Positions 1,270 to 14,402 of a stretch of DNA of 36,962 bases are shown piece by piece. Made by a program: the position numbers and the translations under genes. The notes beneath the pieces were generated by a model. That model was not told the origin of the DNA. It saw only the letters and a program-made list of their open reading frames with translations, and did no database searches. This DNA is from a virus (taxonomy: Duplodnaviria; Heunggongvirae; Uroviricota; Caudoviricetes): IMG/VR virus record IMGVR_UViG_2534681703_000017; one strand, written 5' to 3'. How positions within the stretch are numbered: the stretch's first letter is position 1; each line of letters starts with the position of its first letter.

Positions 1270-3312
1270 ATGTGGATTACAGCAAAAGAGTGTGCTGGCA
1301 TTGGAGGGCTACCAACACGTGAACACAATGTCAGAGCACGTCTAGATCGTGTAATTGAGAATAAACCTGAATTAAGGCGCAAGCGTGAAGGCACAAAAGC
1401 ATTCGAGTATCACATCGACTGCCTGCCCGCTGAAGCGGAGAAAGTTTTACGTAAGCGCCTGACCCATCAGGTCCTGGAAGATACGCAACTGCCCGCCGTG
1501 GTTGAGCAGAAGGCAGTTAAAAACGTTACCGTTCGCGATGAACTGGAGGTGATGGTCAAATGCCCGGAACTGGCATTACGCGAAGTTCAGGCACTGACTG
1601 ACAAGCAAAAAGCCATCGCAGATGCGCGGATATTGCTGGCTACCGAAGTGCATAAACTGCGTGAATACGCAGGAATGTCCAGGACGGCGGCGATAAAACA
1701 CATCGTTGATGGTATCCGGCAGGAGGCTTTGCCCGAGCGTGTTATTGTGGCAGGTAATACCGCCAATGCCCGACAGGGTAAGCGAACTGGCGTCAGTACA
1801 GGGAGTTTACAGGAATGGTATTCCGCCTGGCTGATGGCGCGCGGTGATGCCAATCAGTTACTGGCGTTACTGGCTCCCGGTCATCATAAGGGGACACCGT
1901 GGGAGCAGGTCTGGTGGTTGAGCGATTTCTTAATGTTCTATCGCTCATGGAAGCGCCCGACCGTTGAATATGCGTATCGCGAGTTTTCAGCCTGGTGGCA
2001 TGAAAAACACGCGAATGATGCGGGAATGCTGGCAGCACTGCCTTCAGTTCATGCAGTAAGACGGGTGTTAAGCAGCGTCCCGGTGATTGTTAAAGAGCGT
2101 TTCCGCTCCACCGGTTCAGCCTGGCGTTCGCTCAATCCCTTTGTGCGGCGCGACTGGACATCATTACCGGTTAATGCGGTATGGGTCGGGGATGGTCACT
2201 GTATGAAAATGACCGCGTTTAACCCCCTGACCGGCAATATTTTCCGGCCAGAAGTAACGCTGGTTATGGATGCGGGACAACGCTTTGTTGTGGGCTGGTC
2301 ACTGTCCCTGTCGGAGAACGTGATAGCCGTTGCTGATGCGTTACGTTACGGCATGGCGCAGCACGGGATACCGCTGGTTTATTACTCCGATAACGGGGGC
2401 GGTGAAAAAAACCGGGTGCTTGATGCCGATATTACCGGGATTCTGCCCCGGCTGGGTGTGGAACATCACACGGGGATACCAGGTAACCCGCAGGGGCGCG
2501 GGGTGATTGAAAGGCTTAATAAGGAAATTCCCCGGGATGTGGCCCTGAGTTTCCAGACGTACTGCTCAAAGGGAGCAGACAAGGAAACCGTAATGATGCA
2601 GCAACGGATTATGCAGTCAGCCATTAAGGCCACCCACAAAGGGAAAGAACTGACAAAACGGCAGGTTAAGGCGAGGGATGAAATCCCCACCTTTGAGCAG
2701 CTGATGGCAGCTATAGAGCTGGAGGTCAGACGCTATAACAACCGACCACACAGCAGCCTTCCCCGCAAAGAGGATGGCGAATATTACAGCCCGGCAGCGT
2801 ATCGCCGGAAACTGATAAAAGAGCAGAATGTTGAAATTGATTTCCTGTCGCCGGAAGAACTGCATGAAATGTTCAGACCGGAAGTGACGCGCAAAACATT
2901 TCGCGGGGAAATTCAGTTATTCAACAATATTTATTACTCGTATGAGCTGGCCGCAGAGCACGGGAATGAAGTCAGGGTCAGTTACGATATTCATGATGCA
3001 AACAGCGTCATTGTCCGGCGGGCTGATGGCTCTTATATCTGCGATGCCATCTGGAACGGTAACAAGGTTGATGCCTTCGCTAAACCAGTTATCGAACAAA
3101 AACTGGAGAAACGCGTCAGAGGCCGCATTGCACGGGCCACGCAGAAAATCGAAGAGGCTAAACGCGAGCTTACCCCGGCTATTACGCAGAAACCTGACTT
3201 TAATTTTGGATTTGGTCTGGAGCGCCCGGAGAAAAAGGATAAAGAAGAACTTTATTTATTTGCATCTGAACGCGAACGCAATTTAAAGAAAAACGGCACA
3301 AACAACCGTTAA
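1270..3312 (+). CDS. A: MuA-like DDE transposase
   Basis: 680 aa, position after ner and before a MuB-like ATPase; candidate DDE residues in VGDGHC, YYSDNGGG and GVIERLNKE contexts; N-terminal ...AKECAGIGGLP resembles the MuA N-terminus. Confidence 0.85.
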   Translation: MWITAKECAGIGGLPTREHNVRARLDRVIENKPELRRKREGTKAFEYHIDCLPAEAEKVLRKRLTHQVLEDTQLPAVVEQKAVKNVTVRDELEVMVKCPELALREVQALTDKQKAIADARILLATEVHKLREYAGMSRTAAIKHIVDGIRQEALPERVIVAGNTANARQGKRTGVSTGSLQEWYSAWLMARGDANQLLALLAPGHHKGTPWEQVWWLSDFLMFYRSWKRPTVEYAYREFSAWWHEKHANDAGMLAALPSVHAVRRVLSSVPVIVKERFRSTGSAWRSLNPFVRRDWTSLPVNAVWVGDGHCMKMTAFNPLTGNIFRPEVTLVMDAGQRFVVGWSLSLSENVIAVADALRYGMAQHGIPLVYYSDNGGGEKNRVLDADITGILPRLGVEHHTGIPGNPQGRGVIERLNKEIPRDVALSFQTYCSKGADKETVMMQQRIMQSAIKATHKGKELTKRQVKARDEIPTFEQLMAAIELEVRRYNNRPHSSLPRKEDGEYYSPAAYRRKLIKEQNVEIDFLSPEELHEMFRPEVTRKTFRGEIQLFNNIYYSYELAAEHGNEVRVSYDIHDANSVIVRRADGSYICDAIWNGNKVDAFAKPVIEQKLEKRVRGRIARATQKIEEAKRELTPAITQKPDFNFGFGLERPEKKDKEELYLFASERERNLKKNGTNNR

Positions 3313-3330
3313 TTTAAAAGGTATTTAATT

Positions 3331-4224
3331 ATGAGTTTAATTACGCAATTAAATGACGTAATGGCCCGTCGCGGCTATACGCAGACCCACGTCGCCCGTG
3401 CTATTGGTCGTAGCAGCGCCGTTATCAACCAGTATTTACAGGGTAAATATCAGGGCGATATGGCTGATATTGAAGAACGCATTTCTGCCTTCGTGACCCG
3501 TGAGCGGGAAAAGGAAAACAGCCGCCGTATTAAAGCAAAGTTTGTGACCACCGGTATGGCTGCCAAAGGACTGGAGGTGCTGGCCTACGCTCACCTGGAA
3601 TGTGAAATCTGTGTGCTGTATGGCGCGGCAGGTCTTGGCAAAACAATGATTCTGCGTGAATACGCCTCCAGAAACCGGGATGCGGTCCTGATTGAGGCTG
3701 ACCCGGGCTATACAGCCAGGACACTGCTTGAGGAGTTGTGCCGCCAGCTGGGGGTAAAGGTTCGCGGCAACATTCACGAACTGATTGATGCCTGTGTGCG
3801 CGAACTGCGTGATTCCGGTCGTCTGCTGATGGTGGACGAGGCTGAACTGCTCCCCTATCGCGCACTGGAGGTTCTGCGCCGTCTGCATGACAAAGCGGGT
3901 ATCGGGGTTGTCCTGGCGGGTATGCCTCGTCTTCTGATTAATCTCAAGGGGCGTCGTGGTGAATTTGCGCAGTTATACAGCCGCGTGGCGCTGGCGCTTA
4001 ACCTGGGCGACATGCTGGCGCAGGAAGATTTTAACCAGATAGCCACCGGGCTGATGCCGGAAGCAGCAGAACGGGAAATCAGCGAGGCGCTTTACGCACG
4101 CTCGCTGGGTAATGCCCGCCGCCTGTTCAAACTGGCGCGTGGTGTGTACCGGATTTGTGATATCAGCGATGCGCCGGTCAGTGTGCAGGCCATTGATAAA
4201 TTCGCAGAAATGTTAATTCACTGA
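3331..4224 (+). CDS. B: MuB-like AAA+ ATPase (transposition target protein)
   Basis: 297 aa directly downstream of the transposase; Walker A GAAGLGKT; Walker B-like LLMVDEAE. Confidence 0.8.
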   Translation: MSLITQLNDVMARRGYTQTHVARAIGRSSAVINQYLQGKYQGDMADIEERISAFVTREREKENSRRIKAKFVTTGMAAKGLEVLAYAHLECEICVLYGAAGLGKTMILREYASRNRDAVLIEADPGYTARTLLEELCRQLGVKVRGNIHELIDACVRELRDSGRLLMVDEAELLPYRALEVLRRLHDKAGIGVVLAGMPRLLINLKGRRGEFAQLYSRVALALNLGDMLAQEDFNQIATGLMPEAAEREISEALYARSLGNARRLFKLARGVYRICDISDAPVSVQAIDKFAEMLIH

Positions 4225-4463
4225 TGGAGAACAAGATGATGGACAAGCAGACCATTAACGCCGTCCGTTCCCGTGCCCGTGTGGCCATCCACACCACCGG
4301 CGGTCGCGTAACTGGGCAACATCACCGTTTACCTGTGGTTTATGCCTGCCCGCCCGTGGGCGGCCCTGTATGGCCGGTAACGGAAATCATCCAGACATTC
4401 AGCGGCCTGCGCCGCGTGGTGAAAACGTCCTGTATCGACGGCTGCACCGTCGTATGGCAATAA
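4224..4463 (+). CDS. Hypothetical early protein (79 aa)
   Basis: ORF in operon context; start overlaps the B stop (ATGA). No recognisable motif. Confidence 0.4.
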   Translation: MENKMMDKQTINAVRSRARVAIHTTGGRVTGQHHRLPVVYACPPVGGPVWPVTEIIQTFSGLRRVVKTSCIDGCTVVWQ

Positions 4464-4475
4464 GAGGAAATCAGA

Positions 4476-4691
4476 ATGGCGGTTAAGTTAGAAGTAATTA
4501 TCTATACCGATGAAAAAGGCTGTGTTTTAACCCAGACCACGGGGAGTTATTCGAAGGACGGAGCTTCCGAAAAGGAGTTTCAGGTGGCAACAAGATTACA
4601 TGATGCTATCAAGGAAACGCTCAGAAATGACTATAACGGCGTGAATCTTTTTTCTGAAAATGTTGCGCCTCGCGCACATAACACACATTAA
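4476..4691 (+). CDS. Hypothetical early protein (71 aa)
   Basis: ORF in operon context; AGGAAA-like RBS a few nt upstream. Confidence 0.4.
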   Translation: MAVKLEVIIYTDEKGCVLTQTTGSYSKDGASEKEFQVATRLHDAIKETLRNDYNGVNLFSENVAPRAHNTH

Positions 4692-4720
4692 TCTGTAAAT
4701 ATCACTGAGGTAATTTAATT

Positions 4721-5365
4721 ATGACGACTGAAAATAAAGTTAAGCAATACACGAAAACTCAAGCGCCTGAAGGTTACTGGGTGGATGCCCGTGGCGTAAT
4801 GACACCTGAAAGCCTTATCAAAGATATTGACCGCGACCGCGAGCAGCTGGTCGGTGAGCTTGTGGAGATGGTGATTACTGCCTCCGCCTCACTGCGGGAA
4901 CTGAAACTGCGTGCGTTTGGTGATATCCAGGCATTTATTGACCTGTCGGCAGAGAAATACGGTGCTGTGAAAGGCGGCAAAAAAGGGAATATCACGCTTT
5001 ACAGCTTTGACGGGCGTTACAAGATTCAGCGCGCCATGCAGGACCGTATCGCGTTTGATGAACGCATTCAGACCGCGAAGGCGCTGATTGACGACTGTCT
5101 GGCTGACTGGACGGAAGGTGCGCGCCCTGAAATTAAAGCCATCATCAGTGAGGCATTCAGCACGGACAAGGAAGGCAACATCAACACCGGGCGCGTTCTG
5201 GCCCTGCGTCGCCTCGAAATTGAGGACGAACGCTGGAATAACGCCATGTCGCTGATTGGTGAAGCCGTCCAGGTGATTGGCAGCAAGAGCTATATTCGTG
5301 TGTATGAGCGCGTTGGTGATTCTGATGAATACCGCGCAATCCCTCTTGATATTGCAGGGGTTTAA
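4721..5365 (+). CDS. DUF3164-like protein of Mu-like phages
   Basis: 214-aa ORF in the early region; overall resemblance to the DUF3164 family seen in Mu-like prophages (recollection, not searched). Confidence 0.5.
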   Translation: MTTENKVKQYTKTQAPEGYWVDARGVMTPESLIKDIDRDREQLVGELVEMVITASASLRELKLRAFGDIQAFIDLSAEKYGAVKGGKKGNITLYSFDGRYKIQRAMQDRIAFDERIQTAKALIDDCLADWTEGARPEIKAIISEAFSTDKEGNINTGRVLALRRLEIEDERWNNAMSLIGEAVQVIGSKSYIRVYERVGDSDEYRAIPLDIAGV

Positions 5366-5366
5366 T

Positions 5367-5600
5367 ATGCATCAGAATATCAAAGAGTACAGAGCCGGAA
5401 ATAGTTGCGCGGCGTATTCGCTGGGCGCGTCCAGAGCAGAACAACGCGGCGATTATGACGAGGCAGAAAAACTGTGGCGCAAGGCAGCGCAAAGCCCGTG
5501 TAGCACCCTGCGCCGCACCTGGGCTGAACATCGTGCGGAGTTCTGCGCTAACGCTCACCTGAAGGGATGGAGGCCACGCCATGAATGCGAAGAACTTTAA
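5367..5600 (+). CDS. Hypothetical protein (78 aa)
   Basis: ATG at 5367 one nt after the stop of the preceding gene; in frame with track ORF 5277..5600, whose upstream part overlaps the DUF3164 gene. Confidence 0.4.
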   Translation: MHQNIKEYRAGNSCAAYSLGASRAEQRGDYDEAEKLWRKAAQSPCSTLRRTWAEHRAEFCANAHLKGWRPRHECEEL

Positions 5601-8208: not shown

Positions 8209-8466
8209 ATGAGATTGGTTGACCTTTTTATTATCGCTCTGATTATTACGGTTATTGCGCTTTGCGTTACAACGGGCAAGGAACCTGATGTTCCTGGTGA
8301 TACGGGTGGGCATTGCGTGGTAAGGAGAAGTTTCATCAAAACCATTACGCATTGTGATGATGGAAGCGCCACCATGACCAGCGGCGATAAGTTTATATAC
8401 TGCTCTGCCGGGAAAGATGGCACGCCATCCTGTCATGAAGTGACGCTCAGTGATGGTGATAAATAA
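8209..8466 (+). CDS. Small exported or membrane-anchored Cys-rich protein (85 aa)
   Basis: Hydrophobic N-terminus (LVDLFIIALIITVIALCV) followed by a four-Cys soluble part. Confidence 0.4.
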   Translation: MRLVDLFIIALIITVIALCVTTGKEPDVPGDTGGHCVVRRSFIKTITHCDDGSATMTSGDKFIYCSAGKDGTPSCHEVTLSDGDK

Positions 8467-8825: not shown

Positions 8826-9192
8826 AGCCGGTCAGGCGTATCTGGGGTGGGATGATGCCCTTTATCGCCAGACGCTGGCCCGCCTGACCGGTAAAACCAG
8901 CACCACACGCTGCAATCTCGATGAACTGCGCATCATCCGGGAATACATGCACGAACAGGGATTCCCGCGCAAGGCACCCGCTGGTAAAGGTCGCCGCCCT
9001 CGTGTTGCAATGAGCAGAAAATCAGTATTATCCAAAATTGAAGCGTTGCTGGCTGATGCCGGTCGTTCCTGGGCGTATGTAGAAGGACTGGCATCTCACA
9101 TGTATAAGCAACATGTGATCGAATGGCTGACGGATGAACAGCTTTTTGGAGTGATGGTGGCGCTGGTTAAAGATTCAAGGAGACGTAAATGA
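8797..9192 (+). CDS. GemA-like (Mu gp16 family) protein
   Basis: ATG at 8797 preceded by GAGGA; LGWDDALYRQTLARLTGKTS...LRIIREYM resembles GemA/DUF1018 as remembered; the track ORF 8698..9192 extends upstream in the same frame. Confidence 0.5.
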   Translation: MLKKMIGAIKAGQAYLGWDDALYRQTLARLTGKTSTTRCNLDELRIIREYMHEQGFPRKAPAGKGRRPRVAMSRKSVLSKIEALLADAGRSWAYVEGLASHMYKQHVIEWLTDEQLFGVMVALVKDSRRRK

Positions 9193-9527
9193 AAAAACTG
9201 TTATTACTTATTCTGACTTTATGTTTTACAGGGATATCCCATGCTTCTGATTCAGAGGAAGATTTGATCAAAAAAACATTACAGGGCGATTATCAGGCAC
9301 AACGTAATCTGGCTTATTCATACATGAATGGCTGGGATGATATTTCAAAGGATACCATCAGAGGATGCGCTCTCAGGAAGGTTATTCTCTTAACACAAGC
9401 CCAAGCTGACATTGGCGATTATGGAAATGAAGCCATAGATTGTCGAAAAGTGCATCCAACAGATAACCAGAAAGTATGGGAGTATGTCAGAGGATACCTG
9501 GTGTTGATAAACGAGAATAAAAAATAA
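9189..9527 (+). CDS. Secreted (signal-peptide) protein, unknown function
   Basis: N-terminus MKKLLLLILTLCFTGISHA is a classic cleavable signal peptide; sits between the GemA-like and Mor/C-like genes. Confidence 0.5.
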   Translation: MKKLLLLILTLCFTGISHASDSEEDLIKKTLQGDYQAQRNLAYSYMNGWDDISKDTIRGCALRKVILLTQAQADIGDYGNEAIDCRKVHPTDNQKVWEYVRGYLVLINENKK

Positions 9528-9626: not shown

Positions 9627-10094
9627 ATGCAGACCTTCAGTGAAACAGATCTTCGCGATGCACAGGCACTGCTACCCGATTCCGTACAGCAACTGATTAG
9701 CGTGATTGGCTTCCCCGCCCTGACCCGGTTGATTTGTTCTTTTGGTGGTGTGACGTTAAGTGGTAAAACCGGCGCACACGCCGAACGCACCGGCGGTGTC
9801 CATGCCCTGTTACATGACGTGCTGACCGAAGACGAAATCAACAAACTGATCCGCTTTCTTGGCGGTGCACCGTTTTACATTCCCCGTTGCGATCATGCGT
9901 TACGTGCCCTGCGTAACACCCGTTTTATGGCTGATTTACAGCAGCATGTAAAAGGCGGATGCTCACACCGGCAGGCGCTGGCACTGCTCTGTCCCCGTTA
10001 CGGCATTTCAGACCGGTACGCATGGCAGCTGATACACCGACGACAAAAACAGACTTCGCTGAAAAGCCCCACCCAGGTGGGGCTTTTTGATTAA
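9627..10094 (+). CDS. Mor/C-family transcription activator
   Basis: 155 aa; FLGGAPFYIPR and C-terminal HTH-like ISDRYAWQLIHRR resemble the Mu Mor/C family (..GGQVYIPRG..) as remembered. Confidence 0.6.
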   Translation: MQTFSETDLRDAQALLPDSVQQLISVIGFPALTRLICSFGGVTLSGKTGAHAERTGGVHALLHDVLTEDEINKLIRFLGGAPFYIPRCDHALRALRNTRFMADLQQHVKGGCSHRQALALLCPRYGISDRYAWQLIHRRQKQTSLKSPTQVGLFD

Positions 10095-10596: not shown

Positions 10597-10989
10597 ATGT
10601 CTGAACCCTTATCAGGCGGCGGAGCTGTGGCAGTCACCATCGGTGGTGCCAGTGTGTTTGGCCTTCTCACCAATACTGATTTCGGGGTCGTGGTGGGCGC
10701 GTTTGCTGGGGCGCTTTTTGTTGTCACGCAGCAGAAAGAAATCCCGGCATGGCGAATGGCTATTCACCTGCTCGTCGCGTTTGTGGTTGGCGTTCTGGGG
10801 GCTGGCGTGGCTGCGTCACTGATGCAGTGGCTGACCCACTATAACGACAAACCGCTTGATGCATTGTGTGCGGTCGGTGTCTCGGCGTTATCCATCAAGA
10901 TACTGACCTTTCTTTATCAACAGGAAATTTCATCGCTGTTCGGCCTGTTTTCCAGACTGCGCGGCGGAGGGGGTGGAAATGGAAAGTAG
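10597..10989 (+). CDS. Multi-pass membrane protein, putative holin
   Basis: ATG 10597 after CAGGAG; three to four hydrophobic segments; first gene of the lysis cassette. Confidence 0.45.
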   Translation: MSEPLSGGGAVAVTIGGASVFGLLTNTDFGVVVGAFAGALFVVTQQKEIPAWRMAIHLLVAFVVGVLGAGVAASLMQWLTHYNDKPLDALCAVGVSALSIKILTFLYQQEISSLFGLFSRLRGGGGGNGK

Positions 10990-11275
10990 CCTTGCCGGTA
11001 TCGTGAACGTCTGGCTGTGTCTCGCCATTGTGCTGGGGTTGTTTGTATATCGCCGACACGGTGCGGCGCATAAACCGATGATTACCTGGCTGGCGTACTG
11101 GCTGATGCTCGGCTACATCATCATCCCGTTCCGCTGGCTGTCCGGTACATACACGCACTCCAGCTGGCTGGTTGTGGCGCTGAATCTGGTTTTCTGTGCG
11201 CTTATCGTGTGGGCGCACGGGAATTTGTCAAAAATCCTTTCGTTACTGAGGCATCCACATGAAATCAAAAGATGA
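10973..11275 (+). CDS. Membrane protein, putative holin/antiholin
   Basis: 100 aa with about three predicted transmembrane helices, immediately upstream of the endolysin. Confidence 0.45.
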   Translation: MEMESSLAGIVNVWLCLAIVLGLFVYRRHGAAHKPMITWLAYWLMLGYIIIPFRWLSGTYTHSSWLVVALNLVFCALIVWAHGNLSKILSLLRHPHEIKR

Positions 11276-11804
11276 CATTTTTGATGAAGTCCTGGGCAAA
11301 GAAGGCGGTTACGTCAATCACCCGGACGATAAGGGCGGTCCGACCAAATGGGGCATTACGGAAAAAGTTGCCCGCGCCCACGGATACCGTGGCGATATGC
11401 GCAATTTAACCCGCGAACAGGCGCTGGACATCCTTGAAGCTGATTACTGGTATGGCCCGCGATTTGACCAGGTTGCGGCATTATCCCCTGATATTGCCGC
11501 AGAGCTGTGTGATACCGGTGTGAATATGGGGCCATCTGTGGCGTCAAGAATGCTTCAGCGCTGGCTGAATGTGTTCAATCTGCGCGGCAGGATGTATCCC
11601 GATATGGATGCAGACGGACGCATCGGGCCTCGCACCATCAGTGCATTGCGCGCCTTCCTGAATAATCGCGGTCAGGACGGTGAACGGGTGATGCTGACGG
11701 CCCTGAACTGCACGCAGGGGGACTGCTATCTGGAACTGGCAGAGAAACGCGAGGCTAACGAATCGTTTGTTTATGGCTGGCTGAAGGAGCGCGTGGCGGT
11801 ATGA
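11259..11804 (+). CDS. Endolysin, GH108-type lysozyme with C-terminal peptidoglycan-binding domain
   Basis: N-terminal GGYVNHPDDKGGPTKWGIT is the GH108 signature as remembered; no N-terminal signal-anchor. Confidence 0.7.
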   Translation: MKSKDDIFDEVLGKEGGYVNHPDDKGGPTKWGITEKVARAHGYRGDMRNLTREQALDILEADYWYGPRFDQVAALSPDIAAELCDTGVNMGPSVASRMLQRWLNVFNLRGRMYPDMDADGRIGPRTISALRAFLNNRGQDGERVMLTALNCTQGDCYLELAEKREANESFVYGWLKERVAV

Positions 11805-11983
11805 CGCGTCAGTACTGGACCCACAGAACGCCACGTAAAGCCGCGCGCTGTGTTCTGGCCCTGTTTCTGGTGATGTTGCTTCCGGTGGGATGCACAGACA
11901 TTAACAGAGCGGGCCAGCTGTTTGACGCGGCGGCGCAGGTCTGCCGGATTATTGACGGTATCCGGCAGTGTTCGCAGAACTGA
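11801..11983 (+). CDS. Small lipoprotein-like or membrane protein (60 aa), possible spanin component
   Basis: Basic N-terminus, hydrophobic stretch ending LPVGC, three Cys; overlaps the endolysin stop. Lipobox is non-canonical. Confidence 0.3.
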   Translation: MTRQYWTHRTPRKAARCVLALFLVMLLPVGCTDINRAGQLFDAAAQVCRIIDGIRQCSQN

Positions 11984-12056
11984 TTTTTTGAGGTCTGACA
12001 TAGTGAGCATTATCAGATTTACAGAATACAGAGGTTCAGGAGGTGCTGGCGCTGTC

Positions 12057-12209
12057 ATGGTGCTCGCTGAACGCATCACCCATTTTTACCGTCAGTACGG
12101 TACACATGATGGCACGGTCATTGAACTGGATACCGGGAAAAACGTGTATGTTCTTGAAAATCCCGACGAAGTTAAATGTCTGATTGAACAGGATCAGAAG
12201 GACACTTAA
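12057..12209 (+). CDS. Hypothetical small protein (50 aa)
   Basis: ATG 12057 about 13 nt after AGGAGG; in frame with the longer track ORF 11922..12209; start uncertain. Confidence 0.25.
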   Translation: MVLAERITHFYRQYGTHDGTVIELDTGKNVYVLENPDEVKCLIEQDQKDT

Positions 12210-12709
12210 TGGCGTGGTCACAGGATATCAGGGACAAAGTCCGTAACGGGTACATCTTTGACCAGCTTCCGCTGGATATCGTCGCCATGAAGTACGCCGT
12301 GCCGCACGACACCGCGCGGCGCTGGAAAACGCAGGCAATGAAGAACGGCGACGACTGGGACAAGCTGCGGGCCGCGCACGCGCTCGCCGGTGACGGGCTG
12401 GAAAGTGTCGCCCGCACCGTGCTTATCAGTCTGGTGGTGAAGTGTCAGACGACGCTTGAGCGGCTGAACCAGAACCCGGACATCCCGCCGCAGGAGTCCG
12501 TCGAACTGCTGGCGAGTCTGTCTGACAGTCTCAGTAAGGCGGTGGCCAGCAGCAAAAAAATCCTGCCGGAAACCGACCGGCTCGCCACGGCACTGGAAGT
12601 GGTGCAGCGGCTCGGCGCGTTCATCAAGGAGCGTCACCCGGCACAGTATGCCCCGTTTCTTGAGGTGCTCGAAGGCTTCGCTAAAGAGCTTGAGGATAAT
12701 TTCAGTTAA
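12209..12709 (+). CDS. Putative terminase small subunit (Mu gp27-like, DUF1804-like)
   Basis: 166-aa ORF immediately upstream of the large terminase; family assignment from memory and synteny. Confidence 0.45.
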   Translation: MAWSQDIRDKVRNGYIFDQLPLDIVAMKYAVPHDTARRWKTQAMKNGDDWDKLRAAHALAGDGLESVARTVLISLVVKCQTTLERLNQNPDIPPQESVELLASLSDSLSKAVASSKKILPETDRLATALEVVQRLGAFIKERHPAQYAPFLEVLEGFAKELEDNFS

Positions 12710-12715
12710 CCACAG

Positions 12716-12735
12716 CGGCCCGGTTTTCCGGGCCG
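12716..12735 (+). other. Stable hairpin CGGCCCGG-TTTT-CCGGGCCG between the two terminase genes
   Basis: Perfect 8-bp GC stem with 4-nt loop read from sequence; the following sequence is only weakly T-rich. Confidence 0.4.
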
Positions 12736-12743
12736 TCTGATAT

Positions 12744-14402
12744 TTGTATACCAGGTGTGACGTGGCAAAACGTAAACTTTCCATTAAAGAGTTTCAGAGA
12801 AGCTTACAGGAATATATCGCCAACCTCCGCCAGACCATTGAGGCTGAATGTCTGGGGTTCGATGTTAACCCGCAGGCCACACAGGCCCGCCGGGCGGCAG
12901 TCTGCGACCCGGTGACGGGCTACGATTATTTTGTCGAAAACTATTTCCCGCACTACGTCCGCAACCCGGCAAAAAGTGAGCTGCATAAATACCTGTTCAG
13001 CCGTCTGCCACAGGTTGTGGCAAGCCCTGACCCGGAGAACGACGCCATCGCCGCGCCCCGTGGTGAAGCAAAATCCACGCTGGTGACGCAGCTGTTTACC
13101 CTGTGGACCATTATCCGGGCCATTAAACATTACCCGGTCATCATTATGGACAGTATCGACCAGGCTTATCCGATGCTGGAAGCCATCAAGGCTGAACTGG
13201 AATTTAACCCCCGTTTAAAAAACGATTTCCCGGAAGTGTGCGGTCAGGGGCGCGTCTGGCGTATGGGGACCATTGTCACGGCTAACAATATCAAGGTGAC
13301 CGTTGCCGGTAGTGGTAAAAAGCTGCGTGGTCTGCGCCACGGTCCGTACCGTCCTGACCTGGTCATCCTCGACGACATCGAGAACGACGAGATGGTGCGT
13401 AACCCGGAGCAGCGCGACAAGCTGCATGACTGGCTCACTAAAGCCGTGATGCCGCTGGGTGAGGCTGGCGGTAAAACCGATATTATTTATATCGGGACCA
13501 TCCTGCATTACGACTCCGTACTGTCGCGCACGCTGAATAACCCGATGTGGAAAACGGCCCGCTTTAAGGCAGTTATTCAGTGGCCTGCCAATATGAAGCT
13601 GTGGGACGAGTGGGAAGAACTCATCCGCAACAAACAGCCGGAAGCAGCAGAGGCACTTTACCGACAGAACGAAGCTGACATGCTCGCCGGGTCGGTGGTG
13701 TCATGGGCGGCGCGTCCCCTGCTGGCACTGATGAAAATCCGTGTCCGTGACGGTCATGACACCTTTGATTCTGAATACCAGAACGACCCGGTCAGCGGTG
13801 AAGATGCGCTGTTTGCGGGCTGCATTAAGTTCTGGGTTAACCGTCTTGATGAATGGGTGTTTTATGGTGCGGTTGACCCCAGTCTCGGGAAGAAAAACAA
13901 AAACCGTGACCCGTCGGCCATTCTCGTGGGGGGCTTTAACCGCTTTACCGGCATTCTGGATGTGGTTGAAGCCGATATCCGCCGACGACTGCCAAACAAA
14001 CTTATCGAGGACGTGATTAAGTATCAGCGGGAATATCACTGCCTGTGCTGGTCGTTTGAGTCCGTTCAGTTTCAGGAGTTTCTGCGTACCGTGCTGGTTG
14101 AGCGTTCGGCGGCGCTGGGCGTTCCGGTTCCGGCGCTGCCGGTCATCCCGCTGGAGGATAAGGCGCTGCGTATCGAATCCCTTCAGCCGCATATGGCCAA
14201 CGGCCTGATTCGTATCAGTCACACACATCAGACACTGATTGACCAGCTGCGCCACTACCCCAAAGCCGACCACGATGATGGCCCGGACTGTCTGCACATG
14301 CTGTGGACGCTGGCGGTATCGCGTAGCGCAAAATTTCAGATACACACCCCACGCAGCACCGGGCGTGACCGTGGCGGGCGTTTTGGTTCAGGAGGATGGT
14401 AA
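12744..14402 (+). CDS. Terminase large subunit (Mu gp28-like)
   Basis: 552 aa; Walker A-like motif around PRGEAKST; position before the portal. Start uncertain (TTG 12744 or in-frame GTG 12762). Confidence 0.75.
   Translation: MYTRCDVAKRKLSIKEFQRSLQEYIANLRQTIEAECLGFDVNPQATQARRAAVCDPVTGYDYFVENYFPHYVRNPAKSELHKYLFSRLPQVVASPDPENDAIAAPRGEAKSTLVTQLFTLWTIIRAIKHYPVIIMDSIDQAYPMLEAIKAELEFNPRLKNDFPEVCGQGRVWRMGTIVTANNIKVTVAGSGKKLRGLRHGPYRPDLVILDDIENDEMVRNPEQRDKLHDWLTKAVMPLGEAGGKTDIIYIGTILHYDSVLSRTLNNPMWKTARFKAVIQWPANMKLWDEWEELIRNKQPEAAEALYRQNEADMLAGSVVSWAARPLLALMKIRVRDGHDTFDSEYQNDPVSGEDALFAGCIKFWVNRLDEWVFYGAVDPSLGKKNKNRDPSAILVGGFNRFTGILDVVEADIRRRLPNKLIEDVIKYQREYHCLCWSFESVQFQEFLRTVLVERSAALGVPVPALPVIPLEDKALRIESLQPHMANGLIRISHTHQTLIDQLRHYPKADHDDGPDCLHMLWTLAVSRSAKFQIHTPRSTGRDRGGRFGSGGW

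Follow-up and report, generated by a model that had tools for sequence, protein, structure and literature searches.

How does a phage of a Gram-negative host open the outer membrane when its lysis cassette has no recognizable spanin? This question is posed by the 36,962-nucleotide (nt) Caudoviricetes sequence IMG/VR IMGVR_UViG_2534681703_000017 (the window, by which we mean this whole stretch), a Mu-like prophage whose lysis cassette (10597-11983) ends with a gene for a 60-amino-acid (aa) lipoprotein precursor. A mature lipopeptide of ~30 residues is thereby predicted exactly in the place that a pair of inner- and outer-membrane spanins (i-spanin and o-spanin) of the Rz/Rz1 type takes in sister cassettes. 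In the spanin survey of Kongari et al. 2018 (PMC6139136), ~13% of phages of Gram-negative hosts are without a recognizable spanin, and 31 genomes are listed with a lipoprotein that has no linked i-spanin. Outer-membrane opening in spanin-less phages is mostly unexplained, the disruptin of phage phiKT being the main solved case. We report here that, as far as the endolysin, the cassette is an ordinary one, and that its fourth gene, by sequence comparison, belongs to a compact Enterobacterales phage family, PHROG 7528, of orphan lipoproteins derived from an o-spanin. That this protein is the partner-less outer-membrane lysis factor of the cassette is a reading to which we give evenly balanced confidence.

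The predicted product, MTRQYWTHRTPRKAARCVLALFLVMLLPVGC followed by TDINRAGQLFDAAAQVCRIIDGIRQCSQN, displays the features of an o-spanin-like lipoprotein: a basic n-region, a 14-residue h-region, an invariant G30-C31 and Thr at +2, with residues 13-35 as its sole hydrophobic segment and a polar C-terminus. The lipobox, L-P-V-G-C, had been called non-canonical in a first-pass annotation of the window, and indeed its Pro at -3 falls outside the consensus [LVI][ASTVI][GAS]C; no PVGC or PLGC lipobox occurs in the portion of the spanin tables of Kongari et al. 2018 (PMC6139136) that was searched. Most homologues, however, carry a canonical LVGC lipobox, and hence PHROG 7528 can be taken as a lipoprotein family of which the window subtype is a variant. 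The length is constant at 60 aa across ~95 loci, at identities down to 30%. G30, C31 and C48 are invariant in the homologues, while C57 does not vary among the closer members and is displaced by a single residue in the farthest ones; C48 and C57 flank a conserved D52-G53. The ratio of nonsynonymous to synonymous substitution rates (dN/dS, Nei-Gojobori) is 0.28 for the whole gene, with dS up to 1.2-1.8; it is 0.08-0.23 for the mature peptide and 0.13-0.43 for the 16-residue n-region, the synonymous sites being saturated between subtypes. The hydrophobic core has a ratio of ~1, as expected under constraint on hydrophobicity alone. Comparative evidence of this kind identifies the open reading frame (ORF) as a real gene under purifying selection.

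The mature peptide has a hydrophobic moment of 0.45-0.62 and a net charge of 0 or -1 in both main subtypes. Its 29 residues reach ~4 nm as a helix and ~10 nm when extended, by this reckoning not enough to bridge the periplasm. Searches of Pfam, NCBIfam, PADLOC and PDB sequences with the 60-aa protein returned nothing meaningful, the only PDB match being a designed helical repeat; 19 family members had no Pfam hit at E <= 10, including to PF23793 and the colicin lysis family (Lysis_col). A scan of the window from every start codon recovered no other credible lipoprotein ORF.

At the nucleotide level, the gene contains a perfect 9-bp inverted repeat (11941-11949 / 11960-11968) across the Cys48-Cys57 codons, with 9/9 pairs in all 16 window-type sequences (one by a G-U change) and 5-8/9 in P27-type sequences; it may be a mere by-product of near-palindromic codons for C-R-I...I-R-Q-C. 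A candidate hairpin sequestering the start codon (11792-11835) was discarded, as it folds no better than shuffled sequences (z-score -0.37).

The family is compact and holds to one position. With the 60-aa protein as query, tblastn recovers phages phiP27, phiSTEC1575-Stx2k and pPE4 at 52-55% identity; a pattern scan of viral contigs yielded 254 relatives, of which 80 loci were retained. A profile search of 5.8 billion proteins gave 183 matches, the named sources being E. coli, Salmonella, Citrobacter, Cronobacter and Yersinia. An exhaustive hidden Markov model (HMM) search of 1.84 billion representative proteins gave 21, comprising intact proteins of 55-71 aa together with fragments and fusions, with no longer ancestral form among them. 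Members are present in the prophage of enteropathogenic E. coli (EPEC) E2348/69, the Shiga toxin (Stx) 2e phage P27 and Stx2k phages, and the backbones that carry the gene include both Mu-like transposable phages and lambdoid Stx phages. In the ~95 loci the gene is always 3' of the endolysin, and it abuts it in 51 of the 81 loci in which an endolysin is visible, at -4 nt where the enzyme is GH108 and at 13-14 nt where it is M15. The endolysin (GH108, M15 or other) is swapped between loci while the lipoprotein gene remains. The most divergent members (30-40% identity) occupy the same slot in cassettes that have one lambda-S-type holin, Phage_holin_3_1, and an endolysin that is M15, GH108 or unclassified; hence, the lipoprotein gene follows the endolysin whatever its partners. 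Apart from an endolysin, the gene has no constant companion among the phage proteins.

The sister cassettes show what else can fill this slot. The holin pair of the window (Phage_holin_8 and Phage_holin_3_7, hol8/hol3_7) recurs in Salmonella phage 118970_sal3 and Cronobacter phage ENT39118, where an Rz-like i-spanin and an overlapping or embedded o-spanin come after the endolysin. Across 45 species-representative genome loci with sister cassettes, Rz and o-spanin were found by homology in 22, and a pair combining an N-terminal transmembrane domain (TMD) protein with a lipobox protein by generic detection in 7 more; the 60-aa gene was found in one, and together with an Rz/Rz1 pair in none (0/45). 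The 60-aa gene and the Rz/Rz1 pairs are therefore positional alternatives and mutually exclusive. In hol8/hol3_7/GH108 cassettes of Klebsiella spp. (loci L126, L127 and L129-L131, ~3000-5600), no i-spanin, o-spanin or small lipoprotein was seen within 900 nt downstream; in L126, the sole Klebsiella locus whose ORFs were read, the next gene after the cassette encodes a 384-aa protein. These may represent another spanin-less type of cassette. In phage Rac-SA53 (locus L085, 3798-4938), which is not among the tblastn matches of the 60-aa protein in the phage collection, LT-IIa enterotoxin genes lie directly after the GH108 endolysin of a hol8/hol3_7 cassette, in the slot of the lipoprotein.

The same slot in sister hol8/hol3_7 cassettes is that of LysC, and it is to the LysC or Rz1-like o-spanins (PF23793, PHROG 456; e.g. 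118970_sal3) that the 60-aa protein shows a sequence relationship. They have in common a leader with the pattern [ST]R.HW[ST]HR.PR..[AS]K[WC], followed by an h-region and a GC lipobox. Residues 2-35 of the 60-aa protein, comprising n-region, h-region and lipobox, align to the LysC leader with an hhalign probability of 97% (E 9e-11); BLASTP gives 45% identity over 38 residues, and PHROG 7528 matches the sal3 o-spanin at E 1.4e-4. The mature domains, in contrast, have no detectable relation (hhalign probability 0.1%), and a likeness seen by eye between the mature peptide and the LysC C-terminal segment SLDLNVSLLSALGQC was likewise set aside at that probability; nor is there similarity of the mature peptide with the Rz/LysC region in any reading frame (shuffle p > 0.2). 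The 60-aa protein is thus not a member of the LysC family, having no Pfam hit and homology in the leader only. LysC proteins are ~107 aa long, with a Pro-rich mature domain of ~70 residues, and their genes overlap that of the Rz/LysB i-spanin, whereas the 60-aa protein has 29 Pro-free residues and comes without an i-spanin. By these comparisons, the 60-aa gene and an o-spanin have a common ancestor for at least the leader, while the mature peptide is a different and much shorter one. The n-region is conserved between this family and LysC-type o-spanins (e.g. locus L088, 3977-4050). In LysC genes its segment overlaps the Rz frame; in the 60-aa gene no other gene runs across the segment, and purifying selection acts on it all the same.

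A closer search for a standard embedded or overlapping spanin pair, which the first-pass annotation had failed to identify and had named as decisive against its own proposal, likewise came up empty. ORFs resembling an i-spanin (a TMD at the N-terminus and a periplasmic domain) are absent from the window cassette and its surroundings in every frame, so that no i-spanin gene is embedded in, overlapping or adjacent to the 60-aa gene, and the 29 residues do not make a periplasmic domain that bridges both membranes. Six different i-spanins (Rz) run by tblastn against the window and all lipoprotein-bearing loci (99 sequences) found no Rz match, and three o-spanins matched only the leader of the 60-aa gene itself. 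The ORF lists of two distant loci show no embedded or overlapping gene at the 60-aa gene. The window has a single type II membrane ORF, at 8209-8466 (85 aa, with a TMD at the N-terminus and ~60 residues of Cys-rich domain; PHROG 8391, unknown function), 2.3 kb upstream and before the Mor gene; it was rejected as an unlinked i-spanin, having no homologue in P27-type phages and only weak matches in Klebsiella phages. The holins were rejected as obligatory partners, since the distant homologues follow the different single holin Phage_holin_3_1. A small protein whose TMD is C-terminal (STEC_57-type, PHROG 4493/1115), and whose gene ends directly at the start of the lipoprotein gene, was dismissed as well: it occurs in only ~30 of 85 loci (e.g. 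L004 3326-3499, L052 and L039) and is missing from the window.

One member of the family has already been catalogued as part of a two-component spanin. Kongari et al. 2018 (PMC6139136) list phiP27 in SpaninDB as a singleton family of the 'separated' type, with the o-spanin at 20706-20861 and a 64-aa i-spanin at 20348-20542; its pair sets the minimum of their range of 62-300 periplasmic residues. The o-spanin so listed is the homologue of the window gene: it is 60 aa long and 55% identical to the window protein, and its slot too is the same, following the endolysin of a hol8/hol3_7 cassette; it differs in its LVGC lipobox, against LPVGC in the window. The i-spanin assigned to it fares less well. 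That ORF (locus L002, 2670-2864) has a TTG start, lies in a 485-nt insertion seen in P27 alone among 85 loci, being missing from the window and the other 84 loci, has no PHROG match and runs antisense to an ORF of 90 aa with a PHROG 36812 match at E 5e-20. It was accordingly rejected as a partner, and the published call is probably spurious. The o-spanin listing is hence known already; what is new here is that the assigned i-spanin does not hold up on sequence comparison, leaving PHROG 7528 probably an orphan family. As we read the survey, P27 stands as its minimum only because this doubtful i-spanin is counted.

Other known single-component systems resemble the 60-aa protein in part. Like the u-spanins of the T1 gp11 type, it is the product of a single lysis-cassette gene with an N-terminal lipobox, but it has neither their C-terminal TMD nor their membrane-bridging periplasmic domain. 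The disruptin phiKT gp28 is described as a cationic antimicrobial peptide of a spanin-less coliphage (bioRxiv 10.1101/515445). Like it, the 60-aa protein is small, helical by prediction, single-component and, as proposed here, a spanin substitute; it differs in having a signal peptide and lipobox, and a mature net charge of 0 or -1. Colicin lysis proteins (bacteriocin release proteins), themselves small lipoproteins, bring about quasi-lysis and activate the outer-membrane phospholipase A with no partner in the inner membrane (PMC9517006). Their likeness to the 60-aa protein, as short mature lipopeptides, is in size and kind only: they are encoded on colicin plasmids and not by phage lysis cassettes, lack the two extra cysteines and show no sequence relation to it (Pfam E <= 10). 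Colicin lysis proteins have mature peptides of ~30 residues, LVGC-type lipoboxes occur among them and their signal peptide is functionally important; such a functional signal peptide would fit the conserved n-region of the 60-aa family.

We can accordingly picture lysis as follows. The four overlapping cassette genes would probably be translationally coupled, and the Phage_holin_8 and Phage_holin_3_7 proteins, as holin and antiholin or co-holin, would permeabilize the inner membrane, freeing the cytoplasmic GH108 endolysin to degrade peptidoglycan. The 60-aa precursor would be exported and most likely lipidated at Cys31, and since its +2 residue is Thr rather than Asp its destination would be the inner leaflet of the outer membrane. 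The product would be a 30-residue lipopeptide whose helical segment is amphipathic and holds two cysteines. For a canonical spanning complex a long partner would be needed, because 29 residues fall far short of the periplasm, and none is encoded; the lipopeptide is therefore envisaged as the cassette's outer-membrane factor acting without a periplasm-spanning complex. With the wall gone, turgor would press the inner onto the outer membrane, and the tethered helix may then destabilize or fuse the membranes; alternatively, it may act like the colicin lysis lipoproteins and perturb the outer membrane. The first-pass annotation had suggested a single small protein for outer-membrane disruption; the position of the 60-aa protein in the spanin slot, its exclusivity with Rz/Rz1 and its o-spanin-like leader fit this idea, while the function itself is what we infer. 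Lipidation of the LPVGC variant, outer-membrane localization, the lysis role and the mechanism are all predictions. We tentatively go one step further, to a proposal that we consider possible and no better than that: PHROG 7528 may be a new single-component class, in which an o-spanin that has lost its periplasm-spanning linker and its i-spanin leaves a ~30-residue outer-membrane-tethered lipopeptide that would finish lysis on its own, by membrane destabilization or fusion or by a colicin-like route (e.g. PldA activation), with an n-region that has a function of its own.

For a partner-less lysis factor speak the purifying selection, the slot after the endolysin, the independence from particular holins and endolysins, the lack of a linked i-spanin, the exclusivity with Rz/Rz1, the leader homology and the standing of the protein as the only lipoprotein candidate of the window. 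We also count the independent listing of the phiP27 homologue as an o-spanin (PMC6139136) and the precedent that the colicin lysis proteins set for small lytic lipoproteins acting without a partner (PMC9517006). Several points weigh on the other side. The lysis role is argued from comparison; the Pro at -3 is disallowed by the lipobox consensus, making lipidation of the window variant putative; and a simple lipoprotein model does not account for a conserved n-region in a supposedly cleaved signal peptide. The net charge of the mature peptide is ~0 and its amphipathicity only moderate (shuffle fraction 0.002-0.11), and an AlphaFold2 model from 19 sequences gives one long helix at low confidence (predicted local distance difference test, pLDDT, 64). 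Other small genes, a variable set that usually includes the one for the C-terminal-TMD protein and is missing from the window, are inserted between endolysin and lipoprotein gene in ~30 of 85 loci, and the lysis-packaging boundary region often gathers accessory genes. Moreover, spanins are dispensable under shear, so that the phage could simply have no outer-membrane factor.

This last possibility leads to an alternative that we consider fairly unlikely, namely that the protein is an accessory lipoprotein unneeded for envelope disruption (a vestigial o-spanin, a modulator of lysis timing, or a superinfection-exclusion or host-interaction factor) in phages without a dedicated outer-membrane step. 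Small phage lipoproteins with non-lysis roles do exist, such as Bor, Cor and Llp; the module boundary gathers cargo, with Stx, LT-II, KilA-N and small ORFs inserted nearby; and the Klebsiella GH108 sister cassettes with nothing recognizable after the endolysin suggest that spanin-less cassettes are viable. Against this, the gene is on the same strand as the endolysin, with a 4-nt overlap and no sigma-70-like promoter or terminator between them, and it keeps with the endolysin across unrelated backbones; purifying selection speaks against a decaying remnant, there is no PADLOC match, and exclusivity with Rz/Rz1 is the pattern of a functional substitute. A distinctly unlikely reading, in our estimate, is that of an ordinary o-spanin of a two-component spanin whose partner was overlooked, being unlinked, atypical (tail-anchored or multi-pass, e.g. 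a holin) or host-encoded. The leader homology to LysC-type o-spanins would fit it, as would the small C-terminal-TMD protein abutting the lipoprotein start in ~30 loci and the fact that nested spanins have been missed earlier (LambdaSo); conserved periplasmic cysteines recall disulfide-dependent spanins, and an i-spanin is listed for P27 (both in Kongari et al. 2018, PMC6139136). That i-spanin, however, is the doubtful ORF of one locus in 85, lacking a PHROG and antisense to the PHROG 36812 match (E 5e-20); Rz homologues are missing from every locus with the 60-aa gene; holin, endolysin and backbone all vary, which leaves no phage protein constantly linked; the type II membrane ORF at 8209-8466 is missing from P27-type phages; and a peptide spanning 4-10 nm at most needs a partner with an unusually long periplasmic domain, of which none was seen. 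Finally, the ORF is short, falls in no family of Pfam or NCBIfam and often goes unannotated (e.g. in phage pPE4), as a chance open frame might be. That idea is barely credible, and the conservation data exclude it: the constant length at identities down to 30%, the invariant Cys pattern, a dN/dS of 0.28 at dS up to 1.2-1.8, the PHROG family, and a Shine-Dalgarno sequence with ATGA coupling all speak for a gene.

The family offers a clean, genetically tractable E. coli example, in which the lysis question is directly testable by existing lambda complementation assays. Should the 60-aa protein prove sufficient to disrupt the outer membrane, it would establish a minimal mechanism, change the catalogue's 'shortest spanin' entry and bear on the release of toxin and phage from Stx lysogens; if it is not, its phages would join the truly spanin-less class. 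Either way, the published P27 i-spanin call deserves re-examination.

The remainder of the cassette (Table 1) is as the first-pass annotation had described it: the ORFs and their coordinates hold, and Pfam and PHROG matches support two multi-pass membrane proteins ahead of a GH108 endolysin. The four genes succeed one another with overlaps of 11, 17 and 4 nt, the last being an ATGA in which the start codon of the 60-aa gene (11801-11803) overlaps the endolysin stop TGA (11802-11804). Neither a sigma-70-like promoter nor a terminator-like site was found between them, which together with the overlaps suggests one late transcript. The first gene has an AGGAG 5-6 nt upstream of its ATG, and its product, with four hydrophobic segments, is a candidate holin or antiholin by its Phage_holin_8 match, its multiple TMDs and its location upstream of the endolysin; both membrane proteins share these three holin traits. 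The start of the second gene, within its 11-nt overlap with the first, is identical to that given by the Prokaryotic Genome Annotation Pipeline (PGAP) in E2348/69. The endolysin has Pfam scores above the cut-offs and an EGGY motif as KEGGYVNHPDDKGG; it also matches the NCBIfam holin-associated N-acetylmuramidase model at E 8e-21, below that model's cut-off. No hydrophobic N-terminal segment, TMD or secretion signal was found in it, and it is predicted to be a cytoplasmic enzyme, in keeping with the earlier view that it lacks a signal anchor and depends on a holin.

Table 1. Coordinates of the lysis cassette genes, the parts of the 60-aa gene and the ORF that follows it in the window
Feature	Position	Strand	Remarks
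Phage_holin_8 / PHROG 198 membrane protein, 130 aa	10597..10989	+	Pfam E 1.8e-25 (89.9 bits, above cut-off); PHROG E 1e-41
Phage_holin_3_7 / PHROG 217 holin, 3 TMDs, 98 aa	10979..11275	+	Pfam E 6e-17 (61.8 bits, above cut-off); PHROG E 2e-31
GH108 endolysin, 181 aa, catalytic domain + PG_binding_3	11259..11804	+	Glyco_hydro_108 E 4e-27 (94.9 bits); PG_binding_3 E 1e-26 (93.1 bits)
AAGGAG, predicted Shine-Dalgarno of 60-aa gene	11784..11789	+	inside endolysin gene, 11 nt before ATG
60-aa lipoprotein precursor (predicted), spanin slot	11801..11983	+	PHROG 7528 (function unknown), E 1e-43, full length
n-region of leader, basic, codons 1-16, MTRQYWTHRTPRKAAR	11801..11848	+	conserved; homologous to LysC/Rz1-like o-spanin leader
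h-region and L-P-V-G-C lipobox	11849..11893	+	Cys31 codon 11891-11893
Mature peptide, 29 residues past the putatively lipidated Cys	11894..11980	+	predicted helical, moderately amphipathic, Pro-free
Small ORF, PHROG 7691	12003..12209	+	68 aa from GTG 12003; 50 aa from ATG 12057

The further small ORF at 12057-12209, which the first-pass annotation had placed in the lysis module, belongs elsewhere. It aligns to positions 19-68 of the 68-position PHROG 7691 profile, and since the match begins only at position 19 the start is probably GTG 12003 and not ATG 12057. This ORF is found only together with the DUF1804 and large terminase (TerL) genes of Mu-like loci, and not in P27-like loci; by this co-occurrence it is part of the Mu-type packaging module and no lysis gene.

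The Mu-like character of the window is given by Pfam and PHROG matches to the Mor activator (9627-10094), a DUF1804 protein (12209-12709) and the large terminase (12744-14402). The segment 10400-12400 is 96-98% identical to prophages of 33 complete E. coli genomes, EPEC E2348/69 among them, and 87 of 5426 complete E. coli genomes have some match to the cassette. With the cassette as query, megablast found no match in the phage collection; its close relatives are prophages. In the E2348/69 prophage, DUF1804 and terL are separated by a DNA methyltransferase gene (locus L001, 5329-6069) that is missing from the window (12709-12744). Directly upstream of Mor, an ORF at 9189-9527 (112 aa; PHROG 5882, unknown function) begins with a cleavable-looking signal peptide (MKKLLLLILTLCFTGISHA, followed by SD), and its product is possibly a secreted accessory (cargo) protein.

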